64,000 bases of DNA, taken from IMG/VR virus record IMGVR_UViG_3300021963_004264, positions 9,955-73,954 of that record, one strand, 5' to 3'. The notes beneath the pieces are model-generated. The model did no database searches and was not told the DNA's origin. It saw only the letters and a program-made list of their open reading frames with translations. Shown here one piece after another: positions 11,408-64,000 of this stretch (position 1 is its first letter; every line of letters starts with the position of its first letter). Source of the stretch: a virus. The translations under genes were made by a program, and so were the position numbers.

Positions 11408-11446
11408 GACCTACTAAACCTTAGTTCTCCTAATAACAAAAGGTTT

Positions 11447-11477
11447 GAAAAGGCACGGCAACGTGCCTTTTCTTTTG
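11447..11477 (+). terminator. Rho-independent terminator
   Basis: GAAAAGGCACG-GCAA-CGTGCCTTTTC followed by TTTT. Confidence 0.9.
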
Positions 11478-13566: not shown

Positions 13567-13651
13567 TGTAAGTTGTTGATTTACAACAGCTTTTTTGTAG
13601 CAAAAAAACAACAAAAAAGTGGTTGACAAACGGGTATGTTTAACGTATACT
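13567..13651 (+). promoter_or_regulatory. IHF-box + sigma70 early promoter
   Basis: TAAGTTGTTGATT (reverse complement AATCAACAACTTA = WATCAANNNNTTR) at 13569-81; TTGACA 13623-28, 17-bp spacer, TATACT 13646-51. Confidence 0.8.
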
Positions 13652-13683
13652 CATATATGTAGTTAGGAAAAAGTAACGCATAT

Positions 13684-13992
13684 ATGTCCTCAAAACAAAA
13701 CATGACTGCAATTATCTACGATAAGCGTGGTAAAGTTGTTTCTATTGGACAAAACAGTTATGTAAAAACTCATCCTCTACAAGCGAAGTATGCTGCCTTA
13801 GCCGGTATGCCCGACAGGCAATTTCTTCATGCAGAGATCCATGCTATTGTAAAATGTAAGGATCTTACTAAGGCCCACAAGATTTTTGTGTCACGCTGGG
13901 ATCGTAAGGGTCAACCTGCTCTTGCTAAACCTTGTCCGGTTTGCATAAGCGCCATTGAAGCCGCAGGCATCGAAATTATTGAACATACCTAA
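13684..13992 (+). CDS. Small cytidine/dCMP deaminase-fold protein
   Basis: LHAEIHAI and AKPCPVC Zn motifs. Confidence 0.8.
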   Translation: MSSKQNMTAIIYDKRGKVVSIGQNSYVKTHPLQAKYAALAGMPDRQFLHAEIHAIVKCKDLTKAHKIFVSRWDRKGQPALAKPCPVCISAIEAAGIEIIEHT

Positions 13993-14029
13993 AAAAAGTG
14001 GTTGACAATAGTGCTAAAGATGCTATTAT
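13992..14029 (+). promoter_or_regulatory. sigma70 early promoter
   Basis: AAAAAAGTGGTTGACAA identical to 13613-13629; TTGACA 14002-07; TG-C-TATTAT extended -10 (14021-29). Confidence 0.8.
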
Positions 14030-14065
14030 TAATATGTAGGTAATAGAAATAAGGAGTAACTTACA

Positions 14066-15172
14066 ATGGATACACTAACTGTAAAGCCCAGTCAAGTTAA
14101 GAGTGTTGCGCTTCGTGCAATGCTTGCAAATCGTCCTCTGTTTATTTGGGGTCCTCCCGGTATTGGTAAGAGTGAACTTGTTCAAGGTATCGCCGCTAGC
14201 GGCTCGCTAGGTAATGCCCTAGTAATTGACCTTCGTCTTGCTCTGCTTGAGCCCACAGACTTGCGTGGCTACCCCTTCCGTAATCCAGAGACTAATACAA
14301 TGGATTGGTCTCCGCCGCAGGATCTTCCCAGCGAAGAACTTGCCGCACAATACGATACAATTATCCTGTTCCTAGACGAGCTTAACAGTGCTCCGCCTAG
14401 TGTGCAGGCCGCGGCATATCAGCTTGTACTTAACCGCCGCATCGGCCAGTATGTTCTTCCTAAGAACGTTAAGATTATTGCCGCAGGTAACCGTGAAACT
14501 GACCGCGGTGTTACGTTCCGTATGCCTGCTCCGTTGGCTAACCGCTTCCGTCACATTAACATGGCAGTAGACTTTGGTGACTGGCAACGTTGGGCTATTA
14601 ATAACGATATCCACCCGGACGTTATTGGTTACCTTTCCTATGCCAAGCAGGACTTGTTTGACTTCGATCCTAAGACCAGTAGCCAAGCATTTGCTACTCC
14701 TCGTTCGTGGTCATACGTTAGCGAGATCCTTTCTACGCTAGGTTTTGAAGGTGCAGAAATTTTTGAACAGAAGGCAGAAATTGCCGGTGCTGTTGGTGAA
14801 GGTATGGCGGGTAAGTTTGTTGAACACCGCCGTATTGCTAGCCACTTGCCTAAGCCAGAAGACATCCTTGCCGGTAAGGTTAAGAAGTTGGACAATAAGT
14901 TGAGCCAAGAAATTTCCGCTAAGTACAGTCTTGTTGTTGGTATGACATATGAGATCAACCAGCTCTATAAGGAAAATGGTACTGGTGGAGACTTTAAGAA
15001 GTGCTTCAACAATGCCGTAGCATTTTCCTACGATAACTTTGAACCTGAAATGGTAGTGTTGTTTTTCAAAACTATTATGACAGACTATGGAATTAAGTTC
15101 AATATCCGCACAGATTTGGATAAAGAACTTTACAAAATCTTCTCTGAGCGTTATACCAAGTATATCGCTTGA
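14066..15172 (+). CDS. MoxR-like AAA+ ATPase
   Basis: Walker A GPPGIGKS, Walker B LFLDELN, AAGN, PLANRF, TPRSW. Confidence 0.9.
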   Translation: MDTLTVKPSQVKSVALRAMLANRPLFIWGPPGIGKSELVQGIAASGSLGNALVIDLRLALLEPTDLRGYPFRNPETNTMDWSPPQDLPSEELAAQYDTIILFLDELNSAPPSVQAAAYQLVLNRRIGQYVLPKNVKIIAAGNRETDRGVTFRMPAPLANRFRHINMAVDFGDWQRWAINNDIHPDVIGYLSYAKQDLFDFDPKTSSQAFATPRSWSYVSEILSTLGFEGAEIFEQKAEIAGAVGEGMAGKFVEHRRIASHLPKPEDILAGKVKKLDNKLSQEISAKYSLVVGMTYEINQLYKENGTGGDFKKCFNNAVAFSYDNFEPEMVVLFFKTIMTDYGIKFNIRTDLDKELYKIFSERYTKYIA

Positions 15173-15179
15173 GGAAGAT

Positions 15180-15255
15180 AGGGTTGAGCCATCCTACCTT
15201 GTTACTCCCTACCTACAGCTCAATCCTTAACGAACCCCCCGGAAACGGGGGGTTC
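15180..15255 (+). ncRNA. Candidate 3'-UTR small RNA: anti-SD loop hairpin plus GAAA-tetraloop hairpin
   Basis: 10-bp stem 15180-89/15218-27 with a 28-nt C/U-rich loop containing TGTTACTCC; then GAACCCCCCG-GAAA-CGGGGGGTTC. Confidence 0.5.
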
Positions 15256-15261
15256 ACCTTA

Positions 15262-15333
15262 TGTAAGTTGTTGATTTACAACGGAAAAATAGGTAGTTTT
15301 TCCAGTTGACAAACCCTCTATTTCGTGTATAAT
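15262..15333 (+). promoter_or_regulatory. IHF-box + sigma70 early promoter
   Basis: 21-bp TGTAAGTTGTTGATTTACAAC identical to 13567-87; TTGACA 15306-11, TATAAT 15328-33. Confidence 0.8.
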
Positions 15334-15363
15334 ATAAGTATAGTAAGAAGGATGGAGTAACAG

Positions 15364-16647
15364 ATGAGTACCGATACAGCAAAGCGTCAAAGCAAGACTA
15401 ACAAGCCTATCCCAGAGACCAAAAAAACTTCTGCTCAAGTAGAAGATGTGCTCATTAAGGCTCGTATTCAAATGCTAATTAGTGCTCCGTTTTTTGGCAA
15501 CCTAGCTACTCGTTTGCGTTTTAAGGACGCAACAGAGTGGCTTTCCACACTTGCCACAGACGGACGTTATTTTTATTACAACCGCAACTTTGTTGACGCA
15601 ATGGCGTTTGATGAGGTTGTGTTCGGCATGGGTCACGAAGTTCTCCATTGTGTTTACGACCACATGGATAAGAAGCGTTTAGGCAATCGTGATCCACGTC
15701 TTTGGAACATTGCTAACGATTACGTTATCAACGCAGACCTAGTTGAAGCTAAGATTGGTGAGCAGATTAAGCTCGTTGACATTTGCTTTGATTGGAAGTA
15801 TCGCGGTAAGATGTCAGAAGAGATTTATGACGATCTATTCCAGAAGGCAGTTAACGAAGGTCGTGTTATTACAGTAGAAGCATTTGATGAGCATATCTAC
15901 CGTGATGATGACGGCGACGACGAAGGTACGGGCGAAGGCGAGGGTAACGATGGATCTAAAGGTCCTGTGCGTTACACTAAGGCAGAGAAGGATCAGATCA
16001 AGCAGGACTTCCAGAATGCTGTGATTCAGAGTGCTAAGGCAGCAGGCGCCGGTAACTTGCCAGGTGGTGTAAAGCGTCTTGTAGACAAGTTGCTTAACCC
16101 ACAGTTGAGCTGGCGTGAACTGTTGCCAATGCAGATCCAAAGTGTTATTAAGAGCGACTATACTTACATGCGTCCAAGCCGCAAGGGTTTAGATGCTGGC
16201 TTCTACTTGCCAGGTATGGATCGCGAACAGACTATTGATGTTGCTATTGCTATTGACACGTCAGGTTCTATTAGCAACGATATGCTAGTAGACTTCCTTA
16301 GCGAAGTACACGGCATTATGAGTCAGTACAATGATTTTAAGATTCATATTTGGTGTTTTGATACCGCAGTACATAACCCTGTGCTAATTACTGCTGACAC
16401 TGCTAATGATCTACTTACGTATGAAATTGGTGGCGGTGGCGGTACCGACTTTGACGTAAACTTTGAATACATGAAGGAGCAAGGTATTGTTCCTAAGAAG
16501 TTTATTATGTTTACAGATGGTTATCCTTGGAACAGTTGGGGTGATGAGAACTACTGTGACAGCCTGTTTATTGTGCATGGTGGTGACGGTGGCAATACAC
16601 CAACCGCACCATTCGGTATTACAGTCCCGTATACAAGGGCCGCTTAA
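15364..16647 (+). CDS. Metallopeptidase-vWA domain protein (DUF2201-like), MoxR partner
   Basis: TLATDG, GHEVLH (HExxH), WNIANDY, MIDAS IDTSGS, GGGGTDF, FTDG. Confidence 0.88.
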   Translation: MSTDTAKRQSKTNKPIPETKKTSAQVEDVLIKARIQMLISAPFFGNLATRLRFKDATEWLSTLATDGRYFYYNRNFVDAMAFDEVVFGMGHEVLHCVYDHMDKKRLGNRDPRLWNIANDYVINADLVEAKIGEQIKLVDICFDWKYRGKMSEEIYDDLFQKAVNEGRVITVEAFDEHIYRDDDGDDEGTGEGEGNDGSKGPVRYTKAEKDQIKQDFQNAVIQSAKAAGAGNLPGGVKRLVDKLLNPQLSWRELLPMQIQSVIKSDYTYMRPSRKGLDAGFYLPGMDREQTIDVAIAIDTSGSISNDMLVDFLSEVHGIMSQYNDFKIHIWCFDTAVHNPVLITADTANDLLTYEIGGGGGTDFDVNFEYMKEQGIVPKKFIMFTDGYPWNSWGDENYCDSLFIVHGGDGGNTPTAPFGITVPYTRAA

Positions 16648-16969: not shown

Positions 16970-17230
16970 ATGGCAAAACAAAAGGTAAAAGAAATGTCAG
17001 AACAAGTACAAGAGACTCAGGCTGATTCAGTACCCGAGTCAATCAGTCTGCAGGATCTTCAAGTCCTACTACAGATTGTTGACCTTGCAAGTAGTCGCGG
17101 TGCTTTCCGAGGTGCAGAGTTAACACAAGTAGGTGCAATTTTTGATAAGCTCAATGCGTTCCTATCATTTATTGCAGAACAGCAAAAAGCTCGCGACGAA
17201 GAAGCAGCCAAACAGGCTGTCGAGGAGTAA
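16970..17230 (+). CDS. Hypothetical phage protein
   Basis: TAAATA 16927-32, AAGGAG RBS; IVDLASSRGAFRGAEL. Confidence 0.75.
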   Translation: MAKQKVKEMSEQVQETQADSVPESISLQDLQVLLQIVDLASSRGAFRGAELTQVGAIFDKLNAFLSFIAEQQKARDEEAAKQAVEE

Positions 17231-17234
17231 CACT

Positions 17235-17843
17235 ATGGCACAGTTAATGAAACACGTTGGTAAGTTTGGCGAAAAACCATGCATTGTTGTATTCCGTGAA
17301 CTACCAGGTGAACAAGACAATTGCTTGATTGTACAAACAGATAACTTAGAAAGCAGACAACACGACGACTTGATGAATGTTATTCAAAGTTCTGAAGCAC
17401 AGCAAGCAAACGATATCAGCGAAGTATTGTTTAGACGTCAATTCACTGACGGTAGCAATATGCTAAACACACTTCACTATGGTAAGAAGTTGCAGAAGGT
17501 TCCGGTTGGTTTAGTTCAACTAACACCTGCGCCTAACCAATCACTACCATTAGATCAAGTTAATGCAGAAATTCGTAAACTAAAGGGAGGCTATACTCCC
17601 CCAGTTAATGATCCTTCGCATCTAGGCGAAACCTCTACCAAACCAGTAAGCACAACCGAAGCAACTTCAGATACTAACGCTGAAAGCGATGTATCAGGTA
17701 TTGCAAAAACACTTCTTGCACAAGCTACTCTTATGGAAGAAGATGGTCAACGTATGCTTACAGAAGCAGAAGCTAAAAAGCAAGAAGCGTTTAGACTTGA
17801 CCCGTCTTTGAGACCACCAGGTCGTCCTAAGAAAGTTAGATAA
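17235..17843 (+). CDS. Hypothetical phage protein
   Basis: True start ATG 17235 after GAGGAGTAAC; MKHVG...VVFRELP; basic GRPKK tail. Confidence 0.75.
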   Translation: MAQLMKHVGKFGEKPCIVVFRELPGEQDNCLIVQTDNLESRQHDDLMNVIQSSEAQQANDISEVLFRRQFTDGSNMLNTLHYGKKLQKVPVGLVQLTPAPNQSLPLDQVNAEIRKLKGGYTPPVNDPSHLGETSTKPVSTTEATSDTNAESDVSGIAKTLLAQATLMEEDGQRMLTEAEAKKQEAFRLDPSLRPPGRPKKVR

Positions 17844-36310: not shown

Positions 36311-36342
36311 TAAGTACAGTTTTAACTGTACCTACATATTTA
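36311..36342 (-). promoter_or_regulatory. Late-type promoter with 5' stem-loop
   Basis: GATAAATA on - strand (TAAATA 36342-36337); GTACAGTT-AA-AACTGTAC hairpin; AGGAG RBS downstream. Confidence 0.6.
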
Positions 36343-52201: not shown

Positions 52202-55200
52202 TTAAATTCCATGGATGAATTTCATCAAACTTTCAACGTTAGCATAGTCTGCGTTAGCTACGTCTGCCAAGCTCAGTGCTGAATTTGAACCAGTGTTTAG
52301 TGTTGGAATTTCTAGTGTAATTGTGGTATTTCCGTTAATAAATTCGGATATATCATCGTCATACTCTTCGGAATCAAAACCATAGTAGTCCCATAACCCA
52401 TCCTGTAAGAATAAATCATCCTCTACTGTAATTGTTAAGTTTGCATTATCAATATCTGTAATGTAGAAGAATGTTACATTGCTTGTATAAGATGTGCTGT
52501 AATGTGTACCATTAGCAGTTAACATAGTGCCGTTAGCTGACATAGATACCACACCACCTGCATTTAACAATGCAATAGCATTTGCTGTTGTTACAATAGA
52601 CAACTGATTTGGTGCAACATAAGCAACATTAGAACCTGCGTAAGACTGATATGTGTAGAATTGAGAACCAACTTCTAACCATATTGCACGATTAGTATCT
52701 AATCTGTTAAATGTTTCTTCTTCAGAACCTTCGATAACGTCTACTGTTACAGGATTTCCATAGATGTCTATAATCAAGTGATCCTGTATACTTGTGCCGG
52801 CGCTGCCTCTGGTTAGTTGACTAATAACATTTCCGTCAAGTCTGTCGTAAAGAATACGCTCTGTTCCTACCCATATAATACCAGGATCTCCTGGGCGTGG
52901 GGTCTGGAATACACTACCATCAACTACTGTAATTTCTGTTGAATATGAATATACGTTAGCTGAAAGTGTAGTACTCTTATTAGTTGTAATTCTAACATAT
53001 TCAGTATCACCGAATAAGTTTTGGTGCATTCTATACTTAACTGCAATCGCATCTGGTGATACAGGTGTAGTACTTGTATTACCTCCAGCATATGGACTTG
53101 TGTAAACGTCAATGATTAGTGATTCTAGTGGGTCCAGGAACACCATTTCTTCTGGACGCTCTTCACCGTATAGAATTTTCTTAAATGTTGCGCCGTCAAA
53201 ACCTTCGTAAGTATCATTATTACGTCTTAGCGTAATATTACCTTGCGCTAATTCACTAAAGATACCTTCGTAGTTAACAACTTCAACTGTTCTATCTAAT
53301 GCATACATATCCCAAGGATCTGTATCCCAACCAAAGCTACTTAAGAAATCAACGGTTGAGTCTAAACCTGCTACTGCATTAGTAAACAAGTTAGCATCTA
53401 ATAGTTCGCCTCTCCAGCCACCACCAACTTTTTCTTTTACAAGAGTTAGTGTTGTGCTTAAGTTTCCTGCATTAATAATATCATGCAATACACTAGCATT
53501 TGTGATAATACTTGTATTTGTTCCTGCTGATGAATTATTAAAGTGTGAATTAACTTCCGCAACAAACGATGCACGAACAATTGGATCAAACTTAAATATT
53601 CTATCAATTGCTCTCATTTGTGAACTTGCAGTAATGTTTGCTTCGTTCATTTGGTTGATATTAGCAATATTTCTAGCAATACTTACGTTAACAGTAGTGT
53701 TACTTCTATTATGGCCAAATTGTGTTAATTCGTAGTTGGTTCTATCAAACACAAGTGTAGTATTGTTATGTCTAAATACATTATCGCCCTTGTTTGTAAT
53801 GCTGAAATAATTCTTATAAGCATTATCAAAGAACATGATATTAGCATCATTTTCGCTAAAGTCATCTAGGACACGAACAACACCTAAACCTCTGTCGATG
53901 TAAGGAGGCTTATCAAAGTCACTAACCATTGTTGGACCAACAACTTCAATTGGTGCTCTCTTACCATCTCTATATTCACGAATCTTAGCAGTGAATGGTT
54001 TAACTTCGTTCATGTATTCAATAATACGTGCAAAGTTATCAGGTTTAAATCCGTTTGTAGGAATCAAATCTTCTTCATCTTTTTCAATGTATAGATATGA
54101 AGTCTTGAATGCCCAGCTTAACTGTGTTTGTTCAGCATAAGCATGTTTTAGCATTTCAAAGAATACCTTATTCCACAAACCAATGTCGTTAAAGATTGGA
54201 CTACGTAAAATGTTTAGTAGTATTCTTAATTCATTAGCAAGGGTAGCATTACTTGAAGATGTTTCCAACGATTCTTTAATCTGTAATGTTTCTCTCTTAA
54301 TTGAAATTAGTTTAAAGTCATCGGACGATGCAATATACATCCAAAGTTGTGGCCTGTCAGAAGTAGATGATTTAACTTGAATCACTGTACCATCGGGCAG
54401 ACCCTTCAATGTGAATAGTTCGCCTACACTACCTACGTTAAAGATTGGCTTGTAGCTACTGTCATATCTAATCTTCGTATTAGTGCTGTTATCAACTCGT
54501 TCGACTTCGTACCAGTTAACACGTTCTAAGTAAGTAAGTGTTGTTGGTAAATCTGCATCCCATGTTGAATACTGTGTTTCAAGTTTCAAGTCAATTAACA
54601 GCTCATTAACTACAGAACGTAGTGCTCTACGTGCAGAGCCTAAGTCTCTGAACAATGTCTGTCTTGGTCTAAAACCAATACCGTATTTTTCTACTTCACT
54701 AAGTGTAGGATCAGGTACAACTTGACCGATAGCATTTTCTCCACATAAGCTATCAATTAATTTGTCACTAATATGTTCAGGAATAATGCTGTTATTGTCA
54801 TTTTCACGTACTAACTTCCAAGCAGTATGTTTAATACCATCGCTATTACTGTTGCGATTAATGTTAATTTGTACTACATTTTCATCTTTTAGTACAGTTG
54901 AAATGTTATGTAGAACAAAACTTTCATCGCTGATGAAGCTAGCCATTGTAAGGCCATAGCCCACTGGGTTAGCAATATAACGTGCAATTGTTTCGGTGTC
55001 CATTTCACGTCCGAGGCTACGTTTAATTCTGTCGTCAACAACAGTTCTATTTTGTACCCAGTAATAGTAATATGTTACAAATTTGCCTGAATCTGGATCG
55101 ATACGACGTTCTGAAACATATCTATCTGACCATCTTGGTGTACCGTTACCGTTCCAGTTCTGTGGAAGTGCTTTACTTTCTACCCATTCACATACAGTGA

Positions 55201-58200
55201 TAGCACTTCCTGGGAATGTGCGACCCCAGTTAATCCAGCGTTCGCGGTTTGATCCTTGTTCGTACCACATGTACTTAACTGTACTTGTATCCCACCAAAC
55301 TTTACCTACATTGTTTAGGCCAAAGTTAGTGCGAGCATTGTTGTAATTTACTGGATCATTTTCACTAATGTAATGGATTTCGTTAGAAACAAATCCTGGT
55401 AATACGCCCTTGAACGGATCCCATAAATCAAACTGAACAGTCTTATTACCTGTATCCGGATCGTAAATTAGCGCACTCTTAACATAATTTGTATCTACCA
55501 GAGGAGTCTGCCAACGCTGAGGAATACCATTTTCTAGGTATGCCCAACCGCCTAGTACGAAATCTGGCATTGAAATATTAGCAGGGTCTAAGTTGAAATA
55601 CGAATCAACCCAAGCATTAGCTAATTCAGTTGTTTCTGACTCTAACAAATCTGGTTTTAGATACAGCTTATTATCATTATATTCAAGTACGTTATTCCAA
55701 CGTTGACTTGCAAATGCATAGACATTAACATTTTGTTGATCGCTACCGTTTAGAGAAACAACATCACCGAATATGTTTCTAATATCATACTTGTATAGTT
55801 CTTTTACAAATGTTATGCTGCCGTCGCCATTGAAACCAGAATTTTCTAAATTAGGGTTCAGTCTTCTGTATTTGTCAGGATCAGGAATTATAGGACCATC
55901 GCTCTTAACAGAGTCAACGCAAAGTAGCGACAATATAGTTGGAGGAGCAGCCTGTGCAGATAGTGCCGCTGTAGATGTATACTTGGCAATGTCTTCCTGT
56001 GATAATAATCCAAATGGTCCTGACTTGTAAAGATTTTCATATTCTGTTTTTAACTGACTATCTGATAAATCAGGCTGAACGAATTCTGCTTCAATACATA
56101 GCATACCAGCATTATAGTCGCCTAACTCGATACCTAATTTTTCTGGGAATCCAGGAGTATCCGTATCAATGTTCACGCTTGGATAATTGGTTGATATAAC
56201 AAGTTTACCTACGCCTGGGCCGGCTGGTTGTAAGCTAACAGAAATGTCTTCTGGTAGATAACCTGCGCCGCGAAGTGCATCGTTCAATGCATCAGCTAGT
56301 ACTTCAGGTGCGTTAATATCAGCAATCTGATCTGGTAAACCTAAATCTTCTTTTGCTCGTCCCTTTTCTGAACAGTCAGGTACTTCATCTGCTGTTAAGA
56401 ATACTCTAGCACCAGTACCGCCAGAAACACGTAATGGTGTTACGTAATTACCAAATTCTGGATCTAGTGGATCGAACACAATGTCATACTGTTTAGCTAG
56501 TCGTTGTCCGCCAATTTCTACAGATGTCTGCGGATCGTATGCACCAGGAGATCCTGTGTAGACAACCCATGCATTTGGATCGTTTGCTGTCTTAGTAGGA
56601 TCATATTTCCATTCAGTGTAGTTAGAAAAGGATGGATGTTTTCCGTTAACAAAAGGTGCTTGACTGTATTCAGGATGATTTACACCGTATGGAGTATTAT
56701 CTTGTGTGCTTGGGTCAACAACACCTAAGTTATTGCTGCTTGCCCAGCCAGGTGAACCAATATAATCATAATCATACTCTAATGGAATACCTTGTGTTAA
56801 ATCAGCTGGGAATACTTTATATAAGCCTCTGTCTAGGATACGTAAACTTGTAATTGCACCCGATCCATCCACACCTGTTACAATAAATTTAGCTACACGT
56901 AGTGGACCTGCAAGTGATTTATATCCCTTAATATAAGCATAAGGGTTAGCATCATTATCTGTTGGATCAGCAAGTGCGCTGTTTCTATCAACAACACCGA
57001 CCTTAGCTGTGACTTCAGCTGGCTGTACTGCCATTCTTTGATCTGGAATACGTTTTAGTGCGCCAACTGCAATCGCGCTTTCAATCGGCTCTCTTAAGCT
57101 AATTTCAAATGTTGTGTGAGAGTTAATGATGTTTGCAACATTGCTGGTAAAATATGAATCTTTTACAAATATGTTTGCGCCAGAAACTGTATCAACAGTA
57201 AACGCAACATTATCCATATAGCTTTCTATAACGTTAGCATTTGCGTTGCCGTCACTGTTAACTAACAGTGTAATAACTCCGCCAGGAACAACTTTACCGC
57301 TAATTGCAGAAGCATTTGCAACCTGAAGTCTAAATGTACCGGTGTCTCCAGTGTCAATAAATGCTACAGGACTAATATTTGCATCACTGATAGTTGTAAC
57401 TGCACCTAATGTAATAGTGTTAGCTACAACACGATAGAATGTTGAATCAGAGATAACAATATTACTAGTAGCATTGTTAAAGTTTTGAACTTCTAGGATA
57501 GTATTATAAGTGTATGTCAAACCTGGTAAGTTTGTTGCATCAACAGTAGTATATAAGTTACGTGGACTTATATCTGTAATTGTAACTGTAGGAGGATTTT
57601 TAACATCGTAACCTACCCCAGGGTTCAACATACGAATACCTGTTATAGCCCCAGTAAATTCATCGAGGCTGGTAACTTCAGCACTTGCGCCTACGCCAGG
57701 ACTGTTGTCATTACCAAAACTAATTCTCAAGTTGGCAGCATTGTTATATCCAACACCAGCAAAGTTAACGCAAATACTACCAAGTGGGCCTCTAGTATTA
57801 TTGGTTGGAGTACCGCCAAGTAGACGTAATCTATCCCCAATTTGATAGCCACTACCACCGCTCATATAAGTTGAACTGTTGGTTGTAGTTACTGTCTTAC
57901 TTGGCAGAACAGCACCAATAAATGGAGTAATTTCATCGTCTGGAACAAATATTGTAGAATTACCGGAACAATCATATAAAGTATATGATGCTGTCGGTGT
58001 TTGGCCAATGTTGCCGTCTGCATAACCAGTTGTGGCTGATAATACTGTAGCATTTGAACTACAACTTTCAGTATTGGTTGTAGTTGTTGTTTGTTCAAAA
58101 CCACGTACAATATGGAAGTCGCCTACACGCTTTAGTGTGCCGCCGCCGCAGCCGTTTTTAACTGCAAAGCTGTTATCGCTACATGATCTAATTAATAAAC

Positions 58201-61200
58201 TATCGGTACCGTCTGCGTTTTTCAATACTTTAGCATCAACACCCGATTGATTACATTTAATCTGATTTGCAATATCGCGCGGTGTTGTTCCTGGAACAAA
58301 ATGTACCAATGCCTGATTAAAAAATAATTGTGTACCAGCTGGAACACTAGCTAAATCATTTGCACTAATTTTAACCTGTGGTGTTGGTCTAAAAATATTA
58401 GCAATAGCAGTTGGGCCAGCTGGAACAAAACTACCATCATCGCCGTAAGTTAACGGAGTAATATTAATTGTAGGCACTTTAGTATAGGTAATGTTACCGG
58501 TTTCTACTTGCGAATCTTGTACATCAACAGTTCCAGTAGGGCCTAACTCAACAACATTACGTTTAGTTTCGACGTCAAATGTTGCTGGTATCTCATTTAG
58601 AGTCTTAATTGTTACTGTGTTGTTATCATCTACAGTGTTAGAATCTGTGGTGATATTATTAACAGGTACACCGTTTAACATCATTGATGTGCCAATTTTC
58701 TTAGGCGCATAGTTAACATTACGCAATGTAGTGTTTAAATCGCCTAGTGTCTTAGCATTTGGTCTATACCAGGGTTGATTTACTATCTCATAACTCTTTA
58801 ATGGTGTAGCTGTTCTAGATACAACAGTTAATTGTTTAGCCAACGGAATTGTAAATCCACCAGTTACACGTTGTTGTGTAGCATTTACATAACGGCCTTC
58901 TTCAAGTGTTTGCGTATATCCGTATTTCTGTGGATCAACAATTCGAGATCTGTTAGGCTTCTTAAAGCTACTTGGCATGAAGTTGTACCCAGTTAATCCT
59001 GGTTGACTATATCCTGCAAAGTTTACTTCAAAGTTGCTATATTCGGCAAATCGGCCGCCTCCGCCAGAGTATAGTCTTGCTGGATCTGATGCACCATAAG
59101 TTGTACTTGATGCTCCAGCAGTGTCAGATCCTGCGCCTGCGCCTGATGTAGTAGAACTAAATGTAGGTGTATCAGGACATAGTTTTTCCATTACTGCCTT
59201 CATTACAGGATCTAAGTTTTTCATTTCTCCTGCACGGAATTTACCGCAATCATCTTCTGGGCAACTACGACTTGAGAATAGTAGTGGACCGCTATAGCCA
59301 GGACCTTTAATACTAATATTAAAGACACCATCTTTAGCACCATTACCGTAAATAACTCGAACAAAGTAATAGCCGCCACCTTTTAGGTACACACTACCAG
59401 TACGTTTTTGTGAAGCGTGCAATCCGCCATTGTTTACTACAGCATTTTGCCAGTTGTAATTTTTGTCACCTAGTTCAGGATGATTACCATCAGCTTTGTA
59501 TTTTTCTTCGCCACTTAAATCGTCTTTATCTGATATCCAAACATATGATGCATCATCCGATGAAGTCTCAACACTATAGGTGCCTGATTTAGGAGAATAG
59601 AAATAACCTTTAACTTCAAATGTAGTTGATTCTCCTGGTTGTCCTCCGCCAAATGTTCTTAGTGATTGTTTACCAGCTTCTTTAGCGCCTGAAGGTACGC
59701 TAGCACCCCTATCAACACCGTTGTTAATCATTTCCTGTGTTGGTGCGCTGTAAGGATAATAAATGTTGTCTTCGTTACTGCCTAGAGTACCTTTTTTCCA
59801 TGAACCAAAATAGCCTGTGCCGTTAAGTTTCTTTTTCTTACCAAACAGTCCGCCGAGTAATCCGCCAAGTATGACAGCGGCACCTGCAACAGCCCAACCA
59901 ACTGGGCCTGATGCGGCAACAATACCAAAGCCTGCACCAAGACTAGCACCGAATCCAGCGGCCGCATAAGCTGCAACGCCGATTGCTCCACCGGCGGCAC
60001 CAATGACTGTACCTAAATTGTTACCGGTATTTTTATTTCCTGAATATGTATAAGCAGTTACAATGCCACCTTCTTTGTAAGCTCTTGAGCCTGCTTCAGC
60101 ACAACCATCTGTTACAACCTGGTCATATTTTACATCAATTTCGTTAGGAGCATCAACTGAATACTTGACAAATAGTGCATATTTGCCTGTTTTATTTGCA
60201 GATCCTTTTGATACAGTGATTCTAACAAATTGACCCAGTGAACAGTCAACAGTTCTGCTTAAGAATCCAAACCCGCTGACGCCAACAACTTTGTTAGTTG
60301 TCTTGTTTCTAGCGGTTTCAGCAATAGTTCTACCTGGTGTGGTATTAAATTTATTTAAGGGATTATCAAGTACTCGTTGAGTCAGTACACCTAACGCATT
60401 TTCAGCAGGCTTGTAGATTATTGTGCTTAAGTCTGGGATAACATCAAAACCATAACGACCAATTTGACTGCCGTTTGTTTCTACTCTGTTTGAACCATCA
60501 GTTTGAGTGTCTATGATATAACGACTTACCCCAGAACTGAAATCTTCTGTAGCAGATTGTTCAATGGTAATACCGTTTACTGATTTAGTACCTGCACCGT
60601 CATCATAAGAGAAATCAAATATTACTAATAACGATTTTTTACCTTGAATCTTAATAACGTGCGTTTCGTCAACGTTAACGTCATTAGTTTTTTCTGTTAA
60701 AAGCCCTGTTCTTTCTACAGTAGGTCTTACAGTACATGGTCCGCTAATTTGTGTTTTAGGAGGAACAGGATTTGGTGATAGTATATCACACGCACTTGGC
60801 AAACCTTCAAGTACACTACCAGTTAGTACTGGAGCAGGATTGTCTTTGTTCTTTTCATCAACAATAGTTACAGCTCTATACGGTTCAGGTGTTCCGCGGC
60901 CAATCCCAGAACCTGCGCCTAAACCTATCTGACTAATATTTCTTGCTACGGCCGCTGGTATAGATACTCCTGTACGTACTTCATCTACTCTAGGTAGTTC
61001 ATCTTCATCACCGGTTGATCCGCCGATATATACTGTATCTGGTGAAAATACACCGTAGCTGTCTGGAGAAGCAGTTTGTCCTGCTAGGTCTCCGGGAAGG
61101 ACTACACTATCGCTAACAATATTTTTCCAGCGTTCGCCACCCCAACCGGTATCAGCGATTGGTCTACGCATTACTGCATCAGCCGGAAGCTCTGTTAAAC

Positions 61201-64000
61201 GAATATATTTAACACGAGTTATAGTACCTTGGTAATCTTTGTATACAGGTGTTGGGTTACCATCATTGTCTTTATTATTATAATCAAAGCCAATCATCTG
61301 ATTCTTATATGTATGTGGCTCTGTCCAGAAACATGCTACAAAAATTTCATCTGCACGTAGTTTTGTATTTTGTGCATCAGATGGATTGTCTGTATCTTCA
61401 TCAAATAGTGTAAATCCATCAACAGAGTTCATTAATGGGAACACCTTAAACTGCTTACTATACTTAAATCTAGGTTGTTTCTTATACCATCCGTCAGCAT
61501 TAAATCCAGGATATGGATTAATTATATCGCTAGCTGGATCGTACGTTGAACCAGCATCTTTGGTTAATGCTGTTAAATCATCACTCCAGAAATTTGGTAC
61601 GTGGTTATCGTTTAGCGCATAATATCCTCTACCAAAGCCCCAGCCAACGCTTGAACCGCCAGAGCCAGCTAAATTGCCTGGACCTTCTGGTTGTGGTTCC
61701 CACTTACCTGATGTTAGACCTGGTTGCCACATTAAGAAACTGTTGTGTCCTGGTGTGGTAACAACAACATTAGTTTCTTTATCAATTTGCAAGCTACCAA
61801 TTAATAAATCTTTTGGTAAAAATTCTAAGTTAGCTAATGCACTTGTTCCGTTGCCACCGTTAACAGCAAATGGTTCAGGTATAATCTGTTTACCAACAAA
61901 GAATGCAGGTTCTACTGGTGGTATTTCAATATATCTGTTACTATTAGCATTTGCTGATGCTTTGTTTACAGGATTAGGTCCTGCATCGCTGAACGCAGTA
62001 TCAGTTACATAGTAAGTATCTTCTAATATCTTGCTTCCGCTAAATGTATTATATGCACTAACTGTTGCAAAATAATCGTAAGGGTATCCAGTATTTGTAG
62101 GTGCAATATCTACTAAGATATAGTATACAGTTCCTGCACTATTTGCAATAGCTTCGTAAACTTCAAACTGCCAAATTTCGCTAGTCTTTAATCTCCAACG
62201 CTTGTATACAACTGAATTGTATGTTACTGTTGCAGACATATCGTAAGTTTTCCACTTAGCACCCTTTGTAGTTGTAACAGAAGGATCGCTGTCAGCTGAA
62301 CCTGGAATTAATGTTAATACTTTACCACCGTCAACATGATCTTTTGTTAGTGCAGGCTTTGGTAATTCTGCGGGTGTAAAATCATCGCCCTCAGAAGCAG
62401 CCGCATTAACACTATCTTCAGATCCATCGCTGACTTCTGAATTGTTTAGTATTTCAAACTCAATACCTGTAGCAGTTGATCTTAGAATTGACTCGTAAAC
62501 AGGAATGTATCTTCTTAATTTTATATCCCAATAGAAAGAAACACCAGTTTGATCCTGATACTTCATGCCTTTTAATGGTCCGATTAATGATGGACCTGTA
62601 TCAAATTTGGGGTCTTTGTTATGTTCGATTGAGTCTGAAATTCTCATATCGCCCACAACTTGAGCACCGCTCGAATTGCCTAACACGTTTGTAAGTGATT
62701 CAGCATCTCTTACATAAGGACCATAGTTATGAATCTTACTAGGTTTCGCTGAGATATCTGTATTTGGAATATTTACAGGTGTTGTAAAATCTTCAAGCAT
62801 GTTGAAAGAAATATTTAATTTACCTGTACTGTCTGTTGAAATAGCACGTCGTCTTAAATCAATAGCACGTTTAATTCCAGAAACCATACCTTCTGGGTTA
62901 TTGTAACTGTTAATGTTAATAACAGAATTATTTAATGTTACTTTAGTATGATCAACTGTTGTTACAACAGGATATCTAAAGTCAGTAACAATAGGCTCAC
63001 GTATAATTACAAAGCCAGATGAAACATTTGCGTTGCTGTGAAGAATTCTATTCTTAAATGTTACTGTTGTGTTTGAAAGATTTTCTTCAATGTAGTAATC
63101 GCCAGCAATCACAGGCTGTGTGTTTGATGCATACAGTACTGTTACTGATTGTAATAATGGTCTACTTGAAATTGTAATTACATTTGAAGAAATATTAGCA
63201 AATCCGCTGGCTACATCAAAATATACACTAGCAGTATCATTGATTGTAAATTCGTCGCGAACATCGATAGTATCACTTCCCACAGAAGTCATACGATAAA
63301 TTTTATTGTATGCTTTTGGAGATGCAAAGTGAACAGCTACACGCTTGTTGTAATCTATAGATTCTTGTGGTATACCATGTGGATCAGTAGTTTTAATTTG
63401 TAAGCCGCGAGTAATAATTGTACCAGTTACATTTGTATCATATGTATAAGGTGCGGAAACAATAATGGCATTAGATTCAGGTACAGAATTAACAATATAT
63501 GCGCCTGTCCATGCGTTAGCATACACCTTAACTACATCACCAGATGATAAACTGTGATTTGAACTTGCTACAAGTTTAGTTAGGTTCATGTGACGAACGT
63601 CAACGTTGTATTCTTTCTTTGCAGTAATACTTGTTGTGCTAACAGGTGAAGTATAGTTTCTCGATAACAACCAAGTATTTCCGCTTCCAGAAACAATAAC
63701 TGTAGGTTCAGTTATACCTGTTCCAGATAAACGCATATTAGTTTCAATTGCACCAGTTACTGCACCGCTAACAGTTAATGTTGTACTAGTAATAGATCCA
63801 TTAAATGTAGCGGTTTTATTTGCTACACCCGGTAACGTAATCGTAAATGAATTTGTAGTAGCATTTGAAACTATGTAATGATTAGATGGTCCGCCGTAAT
63901 CAACAAAAGTTGATGTAATGTAGCGTACATTTCCTAAACTTGATACTACGTTAGCATTAGCAAAGTAACTGCTTTCGATTACAAAAGTATTTGCACTAAC
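52202..64000 (-). CDS. Giant virion protein (>3900 aa; baseplate/tail-associated) with PA14 domain; 5' end outside the window
   Basis: Frame stays open from 63736 to 64000 (VSANTFVIESSY...). Motifs DLWDPFKG, VGKVWWDTS, YYYWV, YMNEVKPF, GGSGYQIGD repeats and PA14 (SSDDAS). Confidence 0.8.
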   Translation of the reverse strand, partial: VSANTFVIESSYFANANVVSSLGNVRYITSTFVDYGGPSNHYIVSNATTNSFTITLPGVANKTATFNGSITSTTLTVSGAVTGAIETNMRLSGTGITEPTVIVSGSGNTWLLSRNYTSPVSTTSITAKKEYNVDVRHMNLTKLVASSNHSLSSGDVVKVYANAWTGAYIVNSVPESNAIIVSAPYTYDTNVTGTIITRGLQIKTTDPHGIPQESIDYNKRVAVHFASPKAYNKIYRMTSVGSDTIDVRDEFTINDTASVYFDVASGFANISSNVITISSRPLLQSVTVLYASNTQPVIAGDYYIEENLSNTTVTFKNRILHSNANVSSGFVIIREPIVTDFRYPVVTTVDHTKVTLNNSVININSYNNPEGMVSGIKRAIDLRRRAISTDSTGKLNISFNMLEDFTTPVNIPNTDISAKPSKIHNYGPYVRDAESLTNVLGNSSGAQVVGDMRISDSIEHNKDPKFDTGPSLIGPLKGMKYQDQTGVSFYWDIKLRRYIPVYESILRSTATGIEFEILNNSEVSDGSEDSVNAAASEGDDFTPAELPKPALTKDHVDGGKVLTLIPGSADSDPSVTTTKGAKWKTYDMSATVTYNSVVYKRWRLKTSEIWQFEVYEAIANSAGTVYYILVDIAPTNTGYPYDYFATVSAYNTFSGSKILEDTYYVTDTAFSDAGPNPVNKASANANSNRYIEIPPVEPAFFVGKQIIPEPFAVNGGNGTSALANLEFLPKDLLIGSLQIDKETNVVVTTPGHNSFLMWQPGLTSGKWEPQPEGPGNLAGSGGSSVGWGFGRGYYALNDNHVPNFWSDDLTALTKDAGSTYDPASDIINPYPGFNADGWYKKQPRFKYSKQFKVFPLMNSVDGFTLFDEDTDNPSDAQNTKLRADEIFVACFWTEPHTYKNQMIGFDYNNKDNDGNPTPVYKDYQGTITRVKYIRLTELPADAVMRRPIADTGWGGERWKNIVSDSVVLPGDLAGQTASPDSYGVFSPDTVYIGGSTGDEDELPRVDEVRTGVSIPAAVARNISQIGLGAGSGIGRGTPEPYRAVTIVDEKNKDNPAPVLTGSVLEGLPSACDILSPNPVPPKTQISGPCTVRPTVERTGLLTEKTNDVNVDETHVIKIQGKKSLLVIFDFSYDDGAGTKSVNGITIEQSATEDFSSGVSRYIIDTQTDGSNRVETNGSQIGRYGFDVIPDLSTIIYKPAENALGVLTQRVLDNPLNKFNTTPGRTIAETARNKTTNKVVGVSGFGFLSRTVDCSLGQFVRITVSKGSANKTGKYALFVKYSVDAPNEIDVKYDQVVTDGCAEAGSRAYKEGGIVTAYTYSGNKNTGNNLGTVIGAAGGAIGVAAYAAAGFGASLGAGFGIVAASGPVGWAVAGAAVILGGLLGGLFGKKKKLNGTGYFGSWKKGTLGSNEDNIYYPYSAPTQEMINNGVDRGASVPSGAKEAGKQSLRTFGGGQPGESTTFEVKGYFYSPKSGTYSVETSSDDASYVWISDKDDLSGEEKYKADGNHPELGDKNYNWQNAVVNNGGLHASQKRTGSVYLKGGGYYFVRVIYGNGAKDGVFNISIKGPGYSGPLLFSSRSCPEDDCGKFRAGEMKNLDPVMKAVMEKLCPDTPTFSSTTSGAGAGSDTAGASSTTYGASDPARLYSGGGGRFAEYSNFEVNFAGYSQPGLTGYNFMPSSFKKPNRSRIVDPQKYGYTQTLEEGRYVNATQQRVTGGFTIPLAKQLTVVSRTATPLKSYEIVNQPWYRPNAKTLGDLNTTLRNVNYAPKKIGTSMMLNGVPVNNITTDSNTVDDNNTVTIKTLNEIPATFDVETKRNVVELGPTGTVDVQDSQVETGNITYTKVPTINITPLTYGDDGSFVPAGPTAIANIFRPTPQVKISANDLASVPAGTQLFFNQALVHFVPGTTPRDIANQIKCNQSGVDAKVLKNADGTDSLLIRSCSDNSFAVKNGCGGGTLKRVGDFHIVRGFEQTTTTTNTESCSSNATVLSATTGYADGNIGQTPTASYTLYDCSGNSTIFVPDDEITPFIGAVLPSKTVTTTNSSTYMSGGSGYQIGDRLRLLGGTPTNNTRGPLGSICVNFAGVGYNNAANLRISFGNDNSPGVGASAEVTSLDEFTGAITGIRMLNPGVGYDVKNPPTVTITDISPRNLYTTVDATNLPGLTYTYNTILEVQNFNNATSNIVISDSTFYRVVANTITLGAVTTISDANISPVAFIDTGDTGTFRLQVANASAISGKVVPGGVITLLVNSDGNANANVIESYMDNVAFTVDTVSGANIFVKDSYFTSNVANIINSHTTFEISLREPIESAIAVGALKRIPDQRMAVQPAEVTAKVGVVDRNSALADPTDNDANPYAYIKGYKSLAGPLRVAKFIVTGVDGSGAITSLRILDRGLYKVFPADLTQGIPLEYDYDYIGSPGWASSNNLGVVDPSTQDNTPYGVNHPEYSQAPFVNGKHPSFSNYTEWKYDPTKTANDPNAWVVYTGSPGAYDPQTSVEIGGQRLAKQYDIVFDPLDPEFGNYVTPLRVSGGTGARVFLTADEVPDCSEKGRAKEDLGLPDQIADINAPEVLADALNDALRGAGYLPEDISVSLQPAGPGVGKLVISTNYPSVNIDTDTPGFPEKLGIELGDYNAGMLCIEAEFVQPDLSDSQLKTEYENLYKSGPFGLLSQEDIAKYTSTAALSAQAAPPTILSLLCVDSVKSDGPIIPDPDKYRRLNPNLENSGFNGDGSITFVKELYKYDIRNIFGDVVSLNGSDQQNVNVYAFASQRWNNVLEYNDNKLYLKPDLLESETTELANAWVDSYFNLDPANISMPDFVLGGWAYLENGIPQRWQTPLVDTNYVKSALIYDPDTGNKTVQFDLWDPFKGVLPGFVSNEIHYISENDPVNYNNARTNFGLNNVGKVWWDTSTVKYMWYEQGSNRERWINWGRTFPGSAITVCEWVESKALPQNWNGNGTPRWSDRYVSERRIDPDSGKFVTYYYYWVQNRTVVDDRIKRSLGREMDTETIARYIANPVGYGLTMASFISDESFVLHNISTVLKDENVVQININRNSNSDGIKHTAWKLVRENDNNSIIPEHISDKLIDSLCGENAIGQVVPDPTLSEVEKYGIGFRPRQTLFRDLGSARRALRSVVNELLIDLKLETQYSTWDADLPTTLTYLERVNWYEVERVDNSTNTKIRYDSSYKPIFNVGSVGELFTLKGLPDGTVIQVKSSTSDRPQLWMYIASSDDFKLISIKRETLQIKESLETSSSNATLANELRILLNILRSPIFNDIGLWNKVFFEMLKHAYAEQTQLSWAFKTSYLYIEKDEEDLIPTNGFKPDNFARIIEYMNEVKPFTAKIREYRDGKRAPIEVVGPTMVSDFDKPPYIDRGLGVVRVLDDFSENDANIMFFDNAYKNYFSITNKGDNVFRHNNTTLVFDRTNYELTQFGHNRSNTTVNVSIARNIANINQMNEANITASSQMRAIDRIFKFDPIVRASFVAEVNSHFNNSSAGTNTSIITNASVLHDIINAGNLSTTLTLVKEKVGGGWRGELLDANLFTNAVAGLDSTVDFLSSFGWDTDPWDMYALDRTVEVVNYEGIFSELAQGNITLRRNNDTYEGFDGATFKKILYGEERPEEMVFLDPLESLIIDVYTSPYAGGNTSTTPVSPDAIAVKYRMHQNLFGDTEYVRITTNKSTTLSANVYSYSTEITVVDGSVFQTPRPGDPGIIWVGTERILYDRLDGNVISQLTRGSAGTSIQDHLIIDIYGNPVTVDVIEGSEEETFNRLDTNRAIWLEVGSQFYTYQSYAGSNVAYVAPNQLSIVTTANAIALLNAGGVVSMSANGTMLTANGTHYSTSYTSNVTFFYITDIDNANLTITVEDDLFLQDGLWDYYGFDSEEYDDDISEFINGNTTITLEIPTLNTGSNSALSLADVANADYANVESLMKFIHGI

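Follow-up and report, generated by a model that had tools for sequence, protein, structure and literature searches.

We identified a hairpin directly downstream of a phage MoxR-like ATPase gene whose loop is complementary to the translation initiation region of the same gene. On comparative sequence grounds this hairpin is a conserved RNA motif of uncultured aquatic phages, absent from Rfam and previously unannotated. We consider it probable, though well short of certain, that the MoxR mRNA limits its own translation when the loop of its 3'UTR hairpin pairs with its own leader, in a manner similar to icaR of Staphylococcus aureus. The features on which this reading is built are given below in the coordinates of the window, meaning the whole stretch of 64,000 nucleotides that was analyzed.

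14002–14029, + strand: predicted promoter of the MoxR-like gene, sigma-70-type, TTGACA-16 nt-TATTAT with TG, 11 of 12 consensus matches.
14035–14042, + strand: MoxR leader block 1, TGTAGGTA, at the predicted mRNA 5' end; complement of loop 15210–15217.
14053–14060, + strand: MoxR leader block 2, GGAGTAAC, over the Shine-Dalgarno (SD) sequence, -13 to -6 from the AUG; complement of loop 15201–15208.
14066–15172, + strand: MoxR-like AAA+ ATPase gene, 368 aa; Pfam AAA_5 and AAA; PHROG 1297 ATPase, E = 1.6e-94.
15180–15189, + strand: 5' arm of the presenting hairpin, AGGGTTGAGC, forming a 10-bp stem with the 3' arm, one G.U pair.
15190–15217, + strand: anti-leader loop, CATCCTACCTTGTTACTCCCTACCTACA, 28 nt with one G.
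15218–15227, + strand: 3' arm of the presenting hairpin, GCTCAATCCT, supported by fold and stem covariation.
15232–15255, + strand: GC-rich hairpin with GAAA tetraloop, GAACCCCCCG-GAAA-CGGGGGGTTC, 10-bp GC stem, predicted intrinsic terminator of MoxR.
15306–15333, + strand: predicted promoter of the vWA-like gene, consensus sigma-70, 12 of 12 matches.
15354–15362, + strand: GGAGTAACA at the ribosome-binding site (RBS) of the vWA-like gene; loop bases 15200–15208 may have it as a second partner, though not in all lineages.
15364–16647, + strand: vWA-like or putative metallopeptidase gene, DUF2201_N and DUF2201; the usual partner gene of MoxR.

As predicted from these features, the MoxR-like gene is a self-contained unit of promoter, leader, coding region, presenting hairpin and terminator. 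The position of the promoter places the predicted transcript start at about 14035–14037, and the predicted transcript ends, set by this promoter and the terminator hairpin, make the unit monocistronic. The leader of ~30 nt is unstructured when folded alone (-5.4 kcal/mol, z +0.8). Related loci also carry a TTGAC-type -35 box and a TATAAT-like -10 box upstream of MoxR; in L011 no -35 box was found in the stretch inspected.

The presenting hairpin starts 7 bases past the MoxR stop codon and is followed after 4 bases by the GC hairpin. Folded together the two reach -37.7 kcal/mol (z = -4.4), a stability matched by none of 200 shuffles. Two adjoining loop segments account for the complementarity, with GTTACTCC (15201–15208) facing the SD block and TACCTACA (15210–15217) facing the 5'-end block. 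In the window the two loop/leader blocks are antiparallel and collinear, the gap between them being 1 nt on the loop side and 10 nt on the leader side. The terminator tail in the window, ACCTTATGTA, is a weak U-tract, and read-through transcripts may therefore exist; a consensus scan did not list this terminator. The 92%-identical relative L200 has ACCTTTTGTA after the terminator stem, and among 44 sequence variants of relatives, all with the GC hairpin, 31 have at least four consecutive T after the stem. Rfam returned no match at gathering score for the whole window, and a relaxed threshold over 13950–15400 gave only chance-level matches (E 0.5–9, wrong strand).

An earlier note, made by reading this DNA without database searches, had described the 10-bp stem, the 28-nt nearly G-free loop and the GC-rich GAAA hairpin, each of which we recovered in place. 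The short matches it had proposed were likewise located: GGAGTAACA at 15354 (vWA RBS) and at 17224 (RBS of the gene at 17235), the 8-nt match GGAGTAAC to the MoxR RBS at 14053, TGTAGGTA at 14035 and, on the minus strand, at 36336, and AGGATGG in the vWA leader at 15349. The order of CCATCCT and TGTTACTCC in the loop is wrong for simultaneous pairing with the vWA leader.

The decisive evidence came from relatives, for which homologues of MoxR were fetched with their flanks from IMG/VR and metagenome contigs. The element lies directly 3' of the MoxR stop codon in 83 viral or metagenomic loci (MoxR 56–92% identical), which reduce to 49 unique loop/leader combinations. Its layout in relatives comprises a 9–15-bp stem of differing sequence, a 14–28-nt loop, the GC hairpin and usually a T-run. 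The loop is conserved as a G-poor segment (0–2 G in 15 stem-typed lineages); in more distant MoxR homologues there is just a plain terminator, or else the next gene overlaps. A covariance model was iterated from five sequences through two rounds, R1 and R2, the narrow R1 missing divergent lineages. Of the loci searched, 34 gave a single R2 match each, on the MoxR strand, and the window's own 73,954-bp record likewise gave one. An IMG/VR scan with a 14-base loop pattern returned mostly coding noise (V-T-P-T codons) and one new true lineage, L119/L170.

Covariation in related phages, which the earlier note had named as a check, was found in the stem. A MAFFT alignment of all hairpins misaligned the stems; pairs were counted in two alignments, A5 and A6, that were fitted to the structure of the model and favor that structure somewhat: standard pairs were formed in 97.7% (A5) and 95.7% (A6) of stem cells, and 7 of 8 stem pairs were changed on both sides in each. 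Double-change cells numbered 43 against 13 in shuffles for A5 and 76 against 24.5 for A6, counts reached by 0/500 shuffles in either alignment, and sliding the 3' partner by 1–3 columns left 17–52% (A5) or 21–51% (A6) of cells paired. An independent, loop-anchored tabulation of 15 lineages gave 4–6 pair types at each of nine stem positions.

The frequent G.U pairs in the stem indicate an RNA read from the MoxR strand. They weigh against the idea of a DNA-level signal, in which the leader blocks and the loop would be inverted operator copies for a phage regulator, for example one looping the MoxR gene. The blocks do occur in both orientations 1.1 kb apart, and similar blocks adjoin other promoters. 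Nonetheless, we regard this idea as extremely improbable, since it leaves unexplained a covarying stem whose many G.U pairs are mismatches on the opposite strand, as well as why one strand is strictly G-poor, why the element always lies between stop codon and terminator, and why the pairing overlaps the SD.

In every lineage examined the loop is the Watson–Crick complement of its own MoxR leader. The longest exact complement measures 7–11 nt in 48 of the 49 unique combinations (median 8 nt), and in 46 of the 49 it lies over the SD region, ending at -10 to -2. Against composition-preserving loop shuffles, duplex energy has a median z of -3.6 across the 49 combinations, with p of 0–0.05 for the own leader in nearly all of them. 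For the window loop and the MoxR leader the duplex energy is -19.5 kcal/mol, reached by 0/500 shuffled loops. Loops also prefer their own leaders (duplex energy -17.2 kcal/mol; longest match 8.5 nt) to those of other lineages (-14.1 kcal/mol; 7.4 nt). The permutation p for own versus foreign leaders is <5e-5 (0/20,000) with the 49 combinations and, for energy, also with 13 representatives, although these p-values overstate independence because the lineages are related. Within its 7-kb locus the MoxR initiation region is the best partner of the loop in 9 of 13 lineages. The covariance model for the hairpin also matched the reverse complement of a MoxR leader (L209, 566–609, minus strand, E = 0.016), an unplanned confirmation of leader/loop complementarity. 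Representative pairings are listed as lineage, loop segment, matching segment of the own leader, and length.

Window: loop GTTACTCC; leader GGAGTAAC (SD, -13 to -6); 8 nt.
Window: loop TACCTACA; leader TGTAGGTA (predicted 5' end); 8 nt.
L001: loop TACATCACTCC; leader GGAGTGATGTA; 11 nt.
L004: loop TACTACTCCT; leader AGGAGTAGTA; 10 nt.
L004: loop ACCTACA; leader TGTAGGT; 7 nt.
L009: loop CTCCTACC; leader GGTAGGAG; 8 nt.
L009: loop CTAACTAA; leader TTAGTTAG; 8 nt.
L011: loop TGTTACTCC; leader GGAGTAACA; 9 nt.
L011: loop CCTACCTAA; leader TTAGGTAGG; 9 nt.
L017 and L243: loop TGTTACTCCTA; leader TAGGAGTAACA; 11 nt.
L018 group: loop TTACTCCTAC; leader GTAGGAGTAA; 10 nt.
L002: loop AACCTACCT; leader AGGTAGGTT; 9 nt.
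L236: loop ACCTACCTAT; leader ATAGGTAGGT; 10 nt.
L119: loop TTACTCCTA; leader TAGGAGTAA; 9 nt.
L119: loop ACCTACATA; leader TATGTAGGT; 9 nt.

A second collinear block of 7–9 bp is thus present in L004, L006, L009, L011 and L119 as well, giving 9+9 bp in L119 compared with 8+8 bp in the window; the 8-nt 5'-end block is shared by L200. Compensatory change is clearest between the window, with L200, and the clade of L001, L201, L202 and L246, in which MoxR is ~90% identical. There GTTAC in the loop has become ATCAC while GTAAC in the leader has become GTGAT, turning GTTACTCC/GGAGTAAC of the window into ATCACTCC/GGAGTGAT of the L001 clade by a G-C to A-T and a T-A to C-G exchange. Pairing is kept through these two double substitutions in the L001 clade, where the loop is cut to 14 nt and the duplex lengthened to 11 bp. 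Clear compensatory double substitutions come mainly from this one clade. Other lineages have a multi-module loop (CCTACCT twice plus GTTACTCC) matching different SD flavors, which is conservation with register switching, not strict covariation.

These comparisons also bear on the idea of a structural element of the mRNA 3' end, acting as an exonuclease barrier or as a protein site for the C/U-rich loop, with the complementarity arising as a by-product of pyrimidine meeting purine. A terminator-adjoining position and a stable covarying stem would suit a 3' stabilizer, and C/U-rich loops pair somewhat with any SD, the off-diagonal duplexes averaging -14 kcal/mol. However, loops shuffled at constant composition do far worse with the own leader, own leaders outdo foreign ones, and the complementary blocks reach 3–7 nt past the GGAG core and include the 5'-end block. 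The compensatory changes of the L001 clade point the same way, and a stabilizer would have no need for a conserved 14–28-nt loop sequence. We therefore hold this explanation to be very unlikely. Both it and the operator idea fit poorly with the shuffle controls, the preference for own over foreign leaders, the covarying stem with its G.U pairs and the strand-specific G-poverty.

Complementarity between a 3' flank and the leader of the same gene is not a general rule in this genome. For its other genes the 3' flank showed no excess over background against the own leader, the mean longest match being 5.75 for own and 5.79 for cross pairs. Two further ideas about the loop were discarded. Loop sequence TACCTTGTTAC complements the universal 16S '1492R' site, but this is unconserved, L010–L017 having TACCTATGTTAC; loop bases 15196–15207 read CTACCTTGTTAC, the complement of 16S rRNA GUAACAAGGUAG, which is probably coincidence. 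The minus strand of the loop resembles an RBS followed by ATG, as if for an antisense ORF, but L002 and L004 lack the ATG.

A distant MoxR group (53–56% identity) has no presenting hairpin, and its 3'UTR begins with TTCTCCTGCT(AGG) right after the stop codon. In L027, L028, L033 and L257 TTCTCCTGCT is a perfect 10-nt complement of the own SD region AGCAGGAGAA; L042, L043 and L264 match over 8 nt and L040 over 6 nt. Judging by this second, hairpin-less architecture, these phage MoxR genes may have arrived more than once at anti-SD control exerted by the 3'UTR. In L050, L054, L273, L275 and L278, the 13–16-nt loop of the terminator after MoxR itself carries TTTACTCTCC; L054 and L278 have a 9-nt complement, TTTTACTCT/AGAGTAAAA, in their own leader upstream of the SD, and the match is weak in L050, L273 and L275.

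Two other repeated or hairpin-forming features were seen in the window. An exact 18-nt repeat, AAGTTGTTGATTTACAAC, with a small 5-bp hairpin, occurs at 13570–13587 and 15265–15282, both copies lying 23–35 nt upstream of a consensus -35 box, and similar sequence occurs in L001 and L015. At least three matches to this repeat at up to 3 mismatches were obtained in 0/100 shuffles, and its role may be that of a regulator site, an UP-like element or a weak terminator. A hairpin at 11416–11477 is located in the 3'UTR of a small HTH-like gene, just before a good terminator. It was considered as a second self-pairing copy and rejected, as its loop CTCCTAAT is by eye not complementary to the SD of that gene, AAGAGGTGA.

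The earlier note had cast the loop as antisense to several translation initiation regions, with MoxR as a secondary 8-nt match. The loop is indeed directed against an initiation region, but MoxR is the only near-universal partner. When the 77 predicted initiation regions of the window were ranked, MoxR came 2nd, the vWA-like gene 3rd, the gene at 13684 6th and the gene at 17235 7th. Comparison with shuffled loops, also proposed in the note, singled out the MoxR leader by energy, as described above, and did not support the number of 8-nt targets: 3 of 77 regions have an 8-nt match where shuffled loops have 1.2 ± 1.1 (P = 0.13). For 9-nt matches the count is 2 of 77 compared with 0.29 (P = 0.023). 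The proposed matches in the leaders of the 17235 gene and the dehydrogenase are present, but they are single 8–9-mers in about the number expected by chance in the window. Given these weak match counts, near chance in the window alone, the claim of several targets rests mainly on relatives, some lineages of which do have extra partners, and is lineage-dependent there. A genome-wide RNAduplex ranking of all 40-nt windows was dominated by G.U-rich chance duplexes and gave no discrimination.

The vWA leader, also among the proposed targets, is complementary to the loop in ~70% of lineages (median z -2.5 over 42 combinations) and exceeds shuffles in 30 of the 42 combinations (p ≤ 0.05), but the match has been lost in several lineages. 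It is down to 3–6 nt in L001, L202, L246, L011, L017, L241 and L243, in which MoxR pairing is kept at 8–11 bp (9–11 bp in L001, L011, L017, L241 and L243). On these sequence comparisons the vWA leader appears to be a frequent but dispensable partner and MoxR self-targeting the invariant feature. Further leaders pair well in certain lineages: in the L018/L048 group the vWA leader pairs better than that of MoxR, in L009 and L006 the leader of another gene pairs about equally well, and L004, L002, L009 and L006 have additional leaders of the same family, located near promoters, whose duplexes with the loop reach -18 to -24 kcal/mol (L004 position 1171 and L009 position 1901 are examples). Given that the MoxR leader has rivals of similar pairing strength in some lineages, the loop could also act in trans. 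Leaders at window positions 13651–13683, 14030–14065 and 15334–15363 are alike, as are those at about 1135–1170 in L004 and about 2180–2215 and 2595–2630 in L002. They share (T)GTAGGT/TAGTTAGG at the predicted start, an A-rich spacer and AGGAG(TA), a resemblance that points to one leader class shared by a subset of sigma-70-driven genes within one phage.

In a rival reading, hairpin and terminator would form a trans-acting, 3'UTR-derived sRNA of ~75–80 nt that represses a regulon with shared leaders, consisting of MoxR, the vWA-like gene and a few others, with self-targeting as just one effect. This reading overlaps with self-repression and is a compatible extension of it; as the primary account we think it possible, if rather unlikely. 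A loop seed followed by a terminator is a typical small-RNA layout, and the features expected of such an RNA are present, namely the G-poor loop in 15 lineages, a shared GC terminator hairpin and a T-run in 31 of the 44 variants, the T-run of the window being weak. The vWA leader and the additional leaders just described also speak for it, and the neighboring window genes at 13684, 14066, 15364 and 17235 are among the best seven of the 77 initiation regions. Against it, seven lineages have given up vWA complementarity while retaining that of MoxR, the compensatory changes follow the MoxR leader, and the window count of regions with an 8-nt match is near chance. Moreover, a consensus scan found no strong plus-strand sigma-70-like promoter just upstream of the hairpin, and the U-tail in this genome is poor for an Hfq-type small RNA. 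Four metatranscriptome runs compared with 13600–16000 contributed only short Logan contigs of relatives, uninformative on ends, strand and level.

We therefore return to self-repression of the MoxR mRNA. The earlier note had left a choice between an sRNA derived from the 3'UTR and a cis element working at long range, with a set of mRNAs as the target to be silenced; the cis option fits best, and the set is mainly MoxR itself. We hypothesize that the hairpin would hold out an unstructured loop, poor in G, whose sequence is complementary in antiparallel order to the SD region of its own mRNA and, in this genome and several relatives, also to the first nucleotides of that mRNA. Once the 3'UTR has been made, the loop would pair with the leader, either that of its own molecule or that of a sibling MoxR mRNA, and the duplex would compete with 30S binding. 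Such competition is suggested by the promoter-leader-coding-loop-terminator layout and by the overlap of the pairing with the SD. Full-length MoxR mRNA would then be translated less and would probably decay more quickly, and the element would serve as a built-in limiter of MoxR output. Pairing in vivo, predominantly cis action and net repression of MoxR are what we infer from sequence. With the loop closed by its stem, contact with the leader would be pseudoknot-like and thus beyond scoring by standard folding programs; the free 5' end and blocks of 8–11 bp make the contact sterically plausible. Pairing of the 5'-terminal block could, instead or additionally, stabilize or protect the 5' end of the MoxR mRNA.

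Among the closest parallels is icaR of S. aureus, in which the 3'UTR pairs with the SD, preventing initiation and generating a substrate for RNase III (PMC3868564). Both have a pyrimidine-rich, anti-SD-like 3'UTR motif that complements the SD of the same mRNA, and both are monocistronic with their own terminator, as predicted for MoxR; by analogy, blocked initiation and faster decay would be the expected outcome for MoxR. The two differ in that there is no sequence homology between UCCCCUG of icaR and the MoxR loop (GTTACTCC or CTCCTACC). UCCCCUG was not found in the MoxR-element loops, and gene and host context also differ. The element thus appears from its sequence to be an analogue of icaR and not a member of the icaR sequence family. 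While icaR came from mRNAs chosen for 3'UTRs >100 nt (PMC3868564), the MoxR motif is located in the loop of a short covarying hairpin adjoining the terminator in a ~90-nt 3'UTR, and several MoxR lineages add a second block that complements the mRNA 5' end. The MoxR element is also phage-encoded and kept down to 56% MoxR identity.

In Bacillus subtilis reporters, anti-SD-like 8-mers placed hundreds of nt further downstream form pairs with the RBS, block initiation and speed decay, and such sequences are generally depleted from genes (PMC12697547). For hbs, a 5'/3'-UTR interaction is reported to govern how ribonucleases act and to couple mRNA stability with translation (PMC5737220). The MoxR element resembles both in setting a distant pyrimidine-rich segment, hundreds of nt away, against its own RBS, and an hbs-type outcome, with stability tied to translation, is conceivable for it. 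Unlike the depleted B. subtilis sequences, the MoxR anti-SD is positively conserved and structurally displayed. As in RsaE (PMC6158497) and 3'UTR-derived sRNAs (reviewed in PMC7821165), an unstructured C/U-rich loop serves as the putative seed against a G-rich SD, and as in the latter the predicted terminator is shared with the parent mRNA; the MoxR element differs from these in that its best-conserved target is the parent mRNA and in having no Rfam match.

Searches of cultured phages with blastn and tblastn yielded no MoxR relative above 46% amino acid identity, and consequently there is no homologue with annotation or experimental work behind it; jumbo phages supply the nearest MoxR homologues in culture (≤46% identity). 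Near-identical DNA occurs in marine, estuarine and freshwater metagenomes. Related contigs reach 100–200 kb, and the CheckV completeness of 20% for the 74-kb record indicates that it is probably a fragment of a much larger (jumbo) phage. A 3843-aa ORF (52202–63736, minus strand) had raised the idea of an N4-like phage, which is unsupported, as this ORF matches a virion structural protein PHROG.

Taken on its sequence, the MoxR hairpin is most likely a known regulatory principle in a new form, whose likeliest job would be self-repression of the MoxR mRNA, with trans targets optional. Among comparable published cases we found none in phage and none with equal comparative evidence. The element is a compact module of ~80 nt: its stem covaries, its loop is defined, and over a dozen pairing registers occur naturally. 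The consensus sigma-70 promoters make reporter testing directly feasible in E. coli. It complements the B. subtilis reporter study (PMC12697547) by presenting a case in which a distant anti-SD, normally selected against, is selected for, and it gives uncultured aquatic phages a further RNA family, one that had lacked annotation. The findings also hint at unusually tight control of phage MoxR ATPase dosage relative to the vWA-like partner. A broader and tentative proposal, which we hold to be unlikely, is that the hairpin founds a phage RNA class, in which a terminator-proximal loop would circularize the mRNA through its 5'-terminal nucleotides and SD and then, released as a stable 3' fragment, would act as an sRNA that switches off, in a coordinated way, a family of early genes whose leaders are related, the MoxR/vWA pair among them; the phages concerned would be uncultured, aquatic and probably jumbo. 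If this were true, distant anti-SD 3'UTRs would imply that tight RNA-based dosage control is generally required by these MoxR ATPases.
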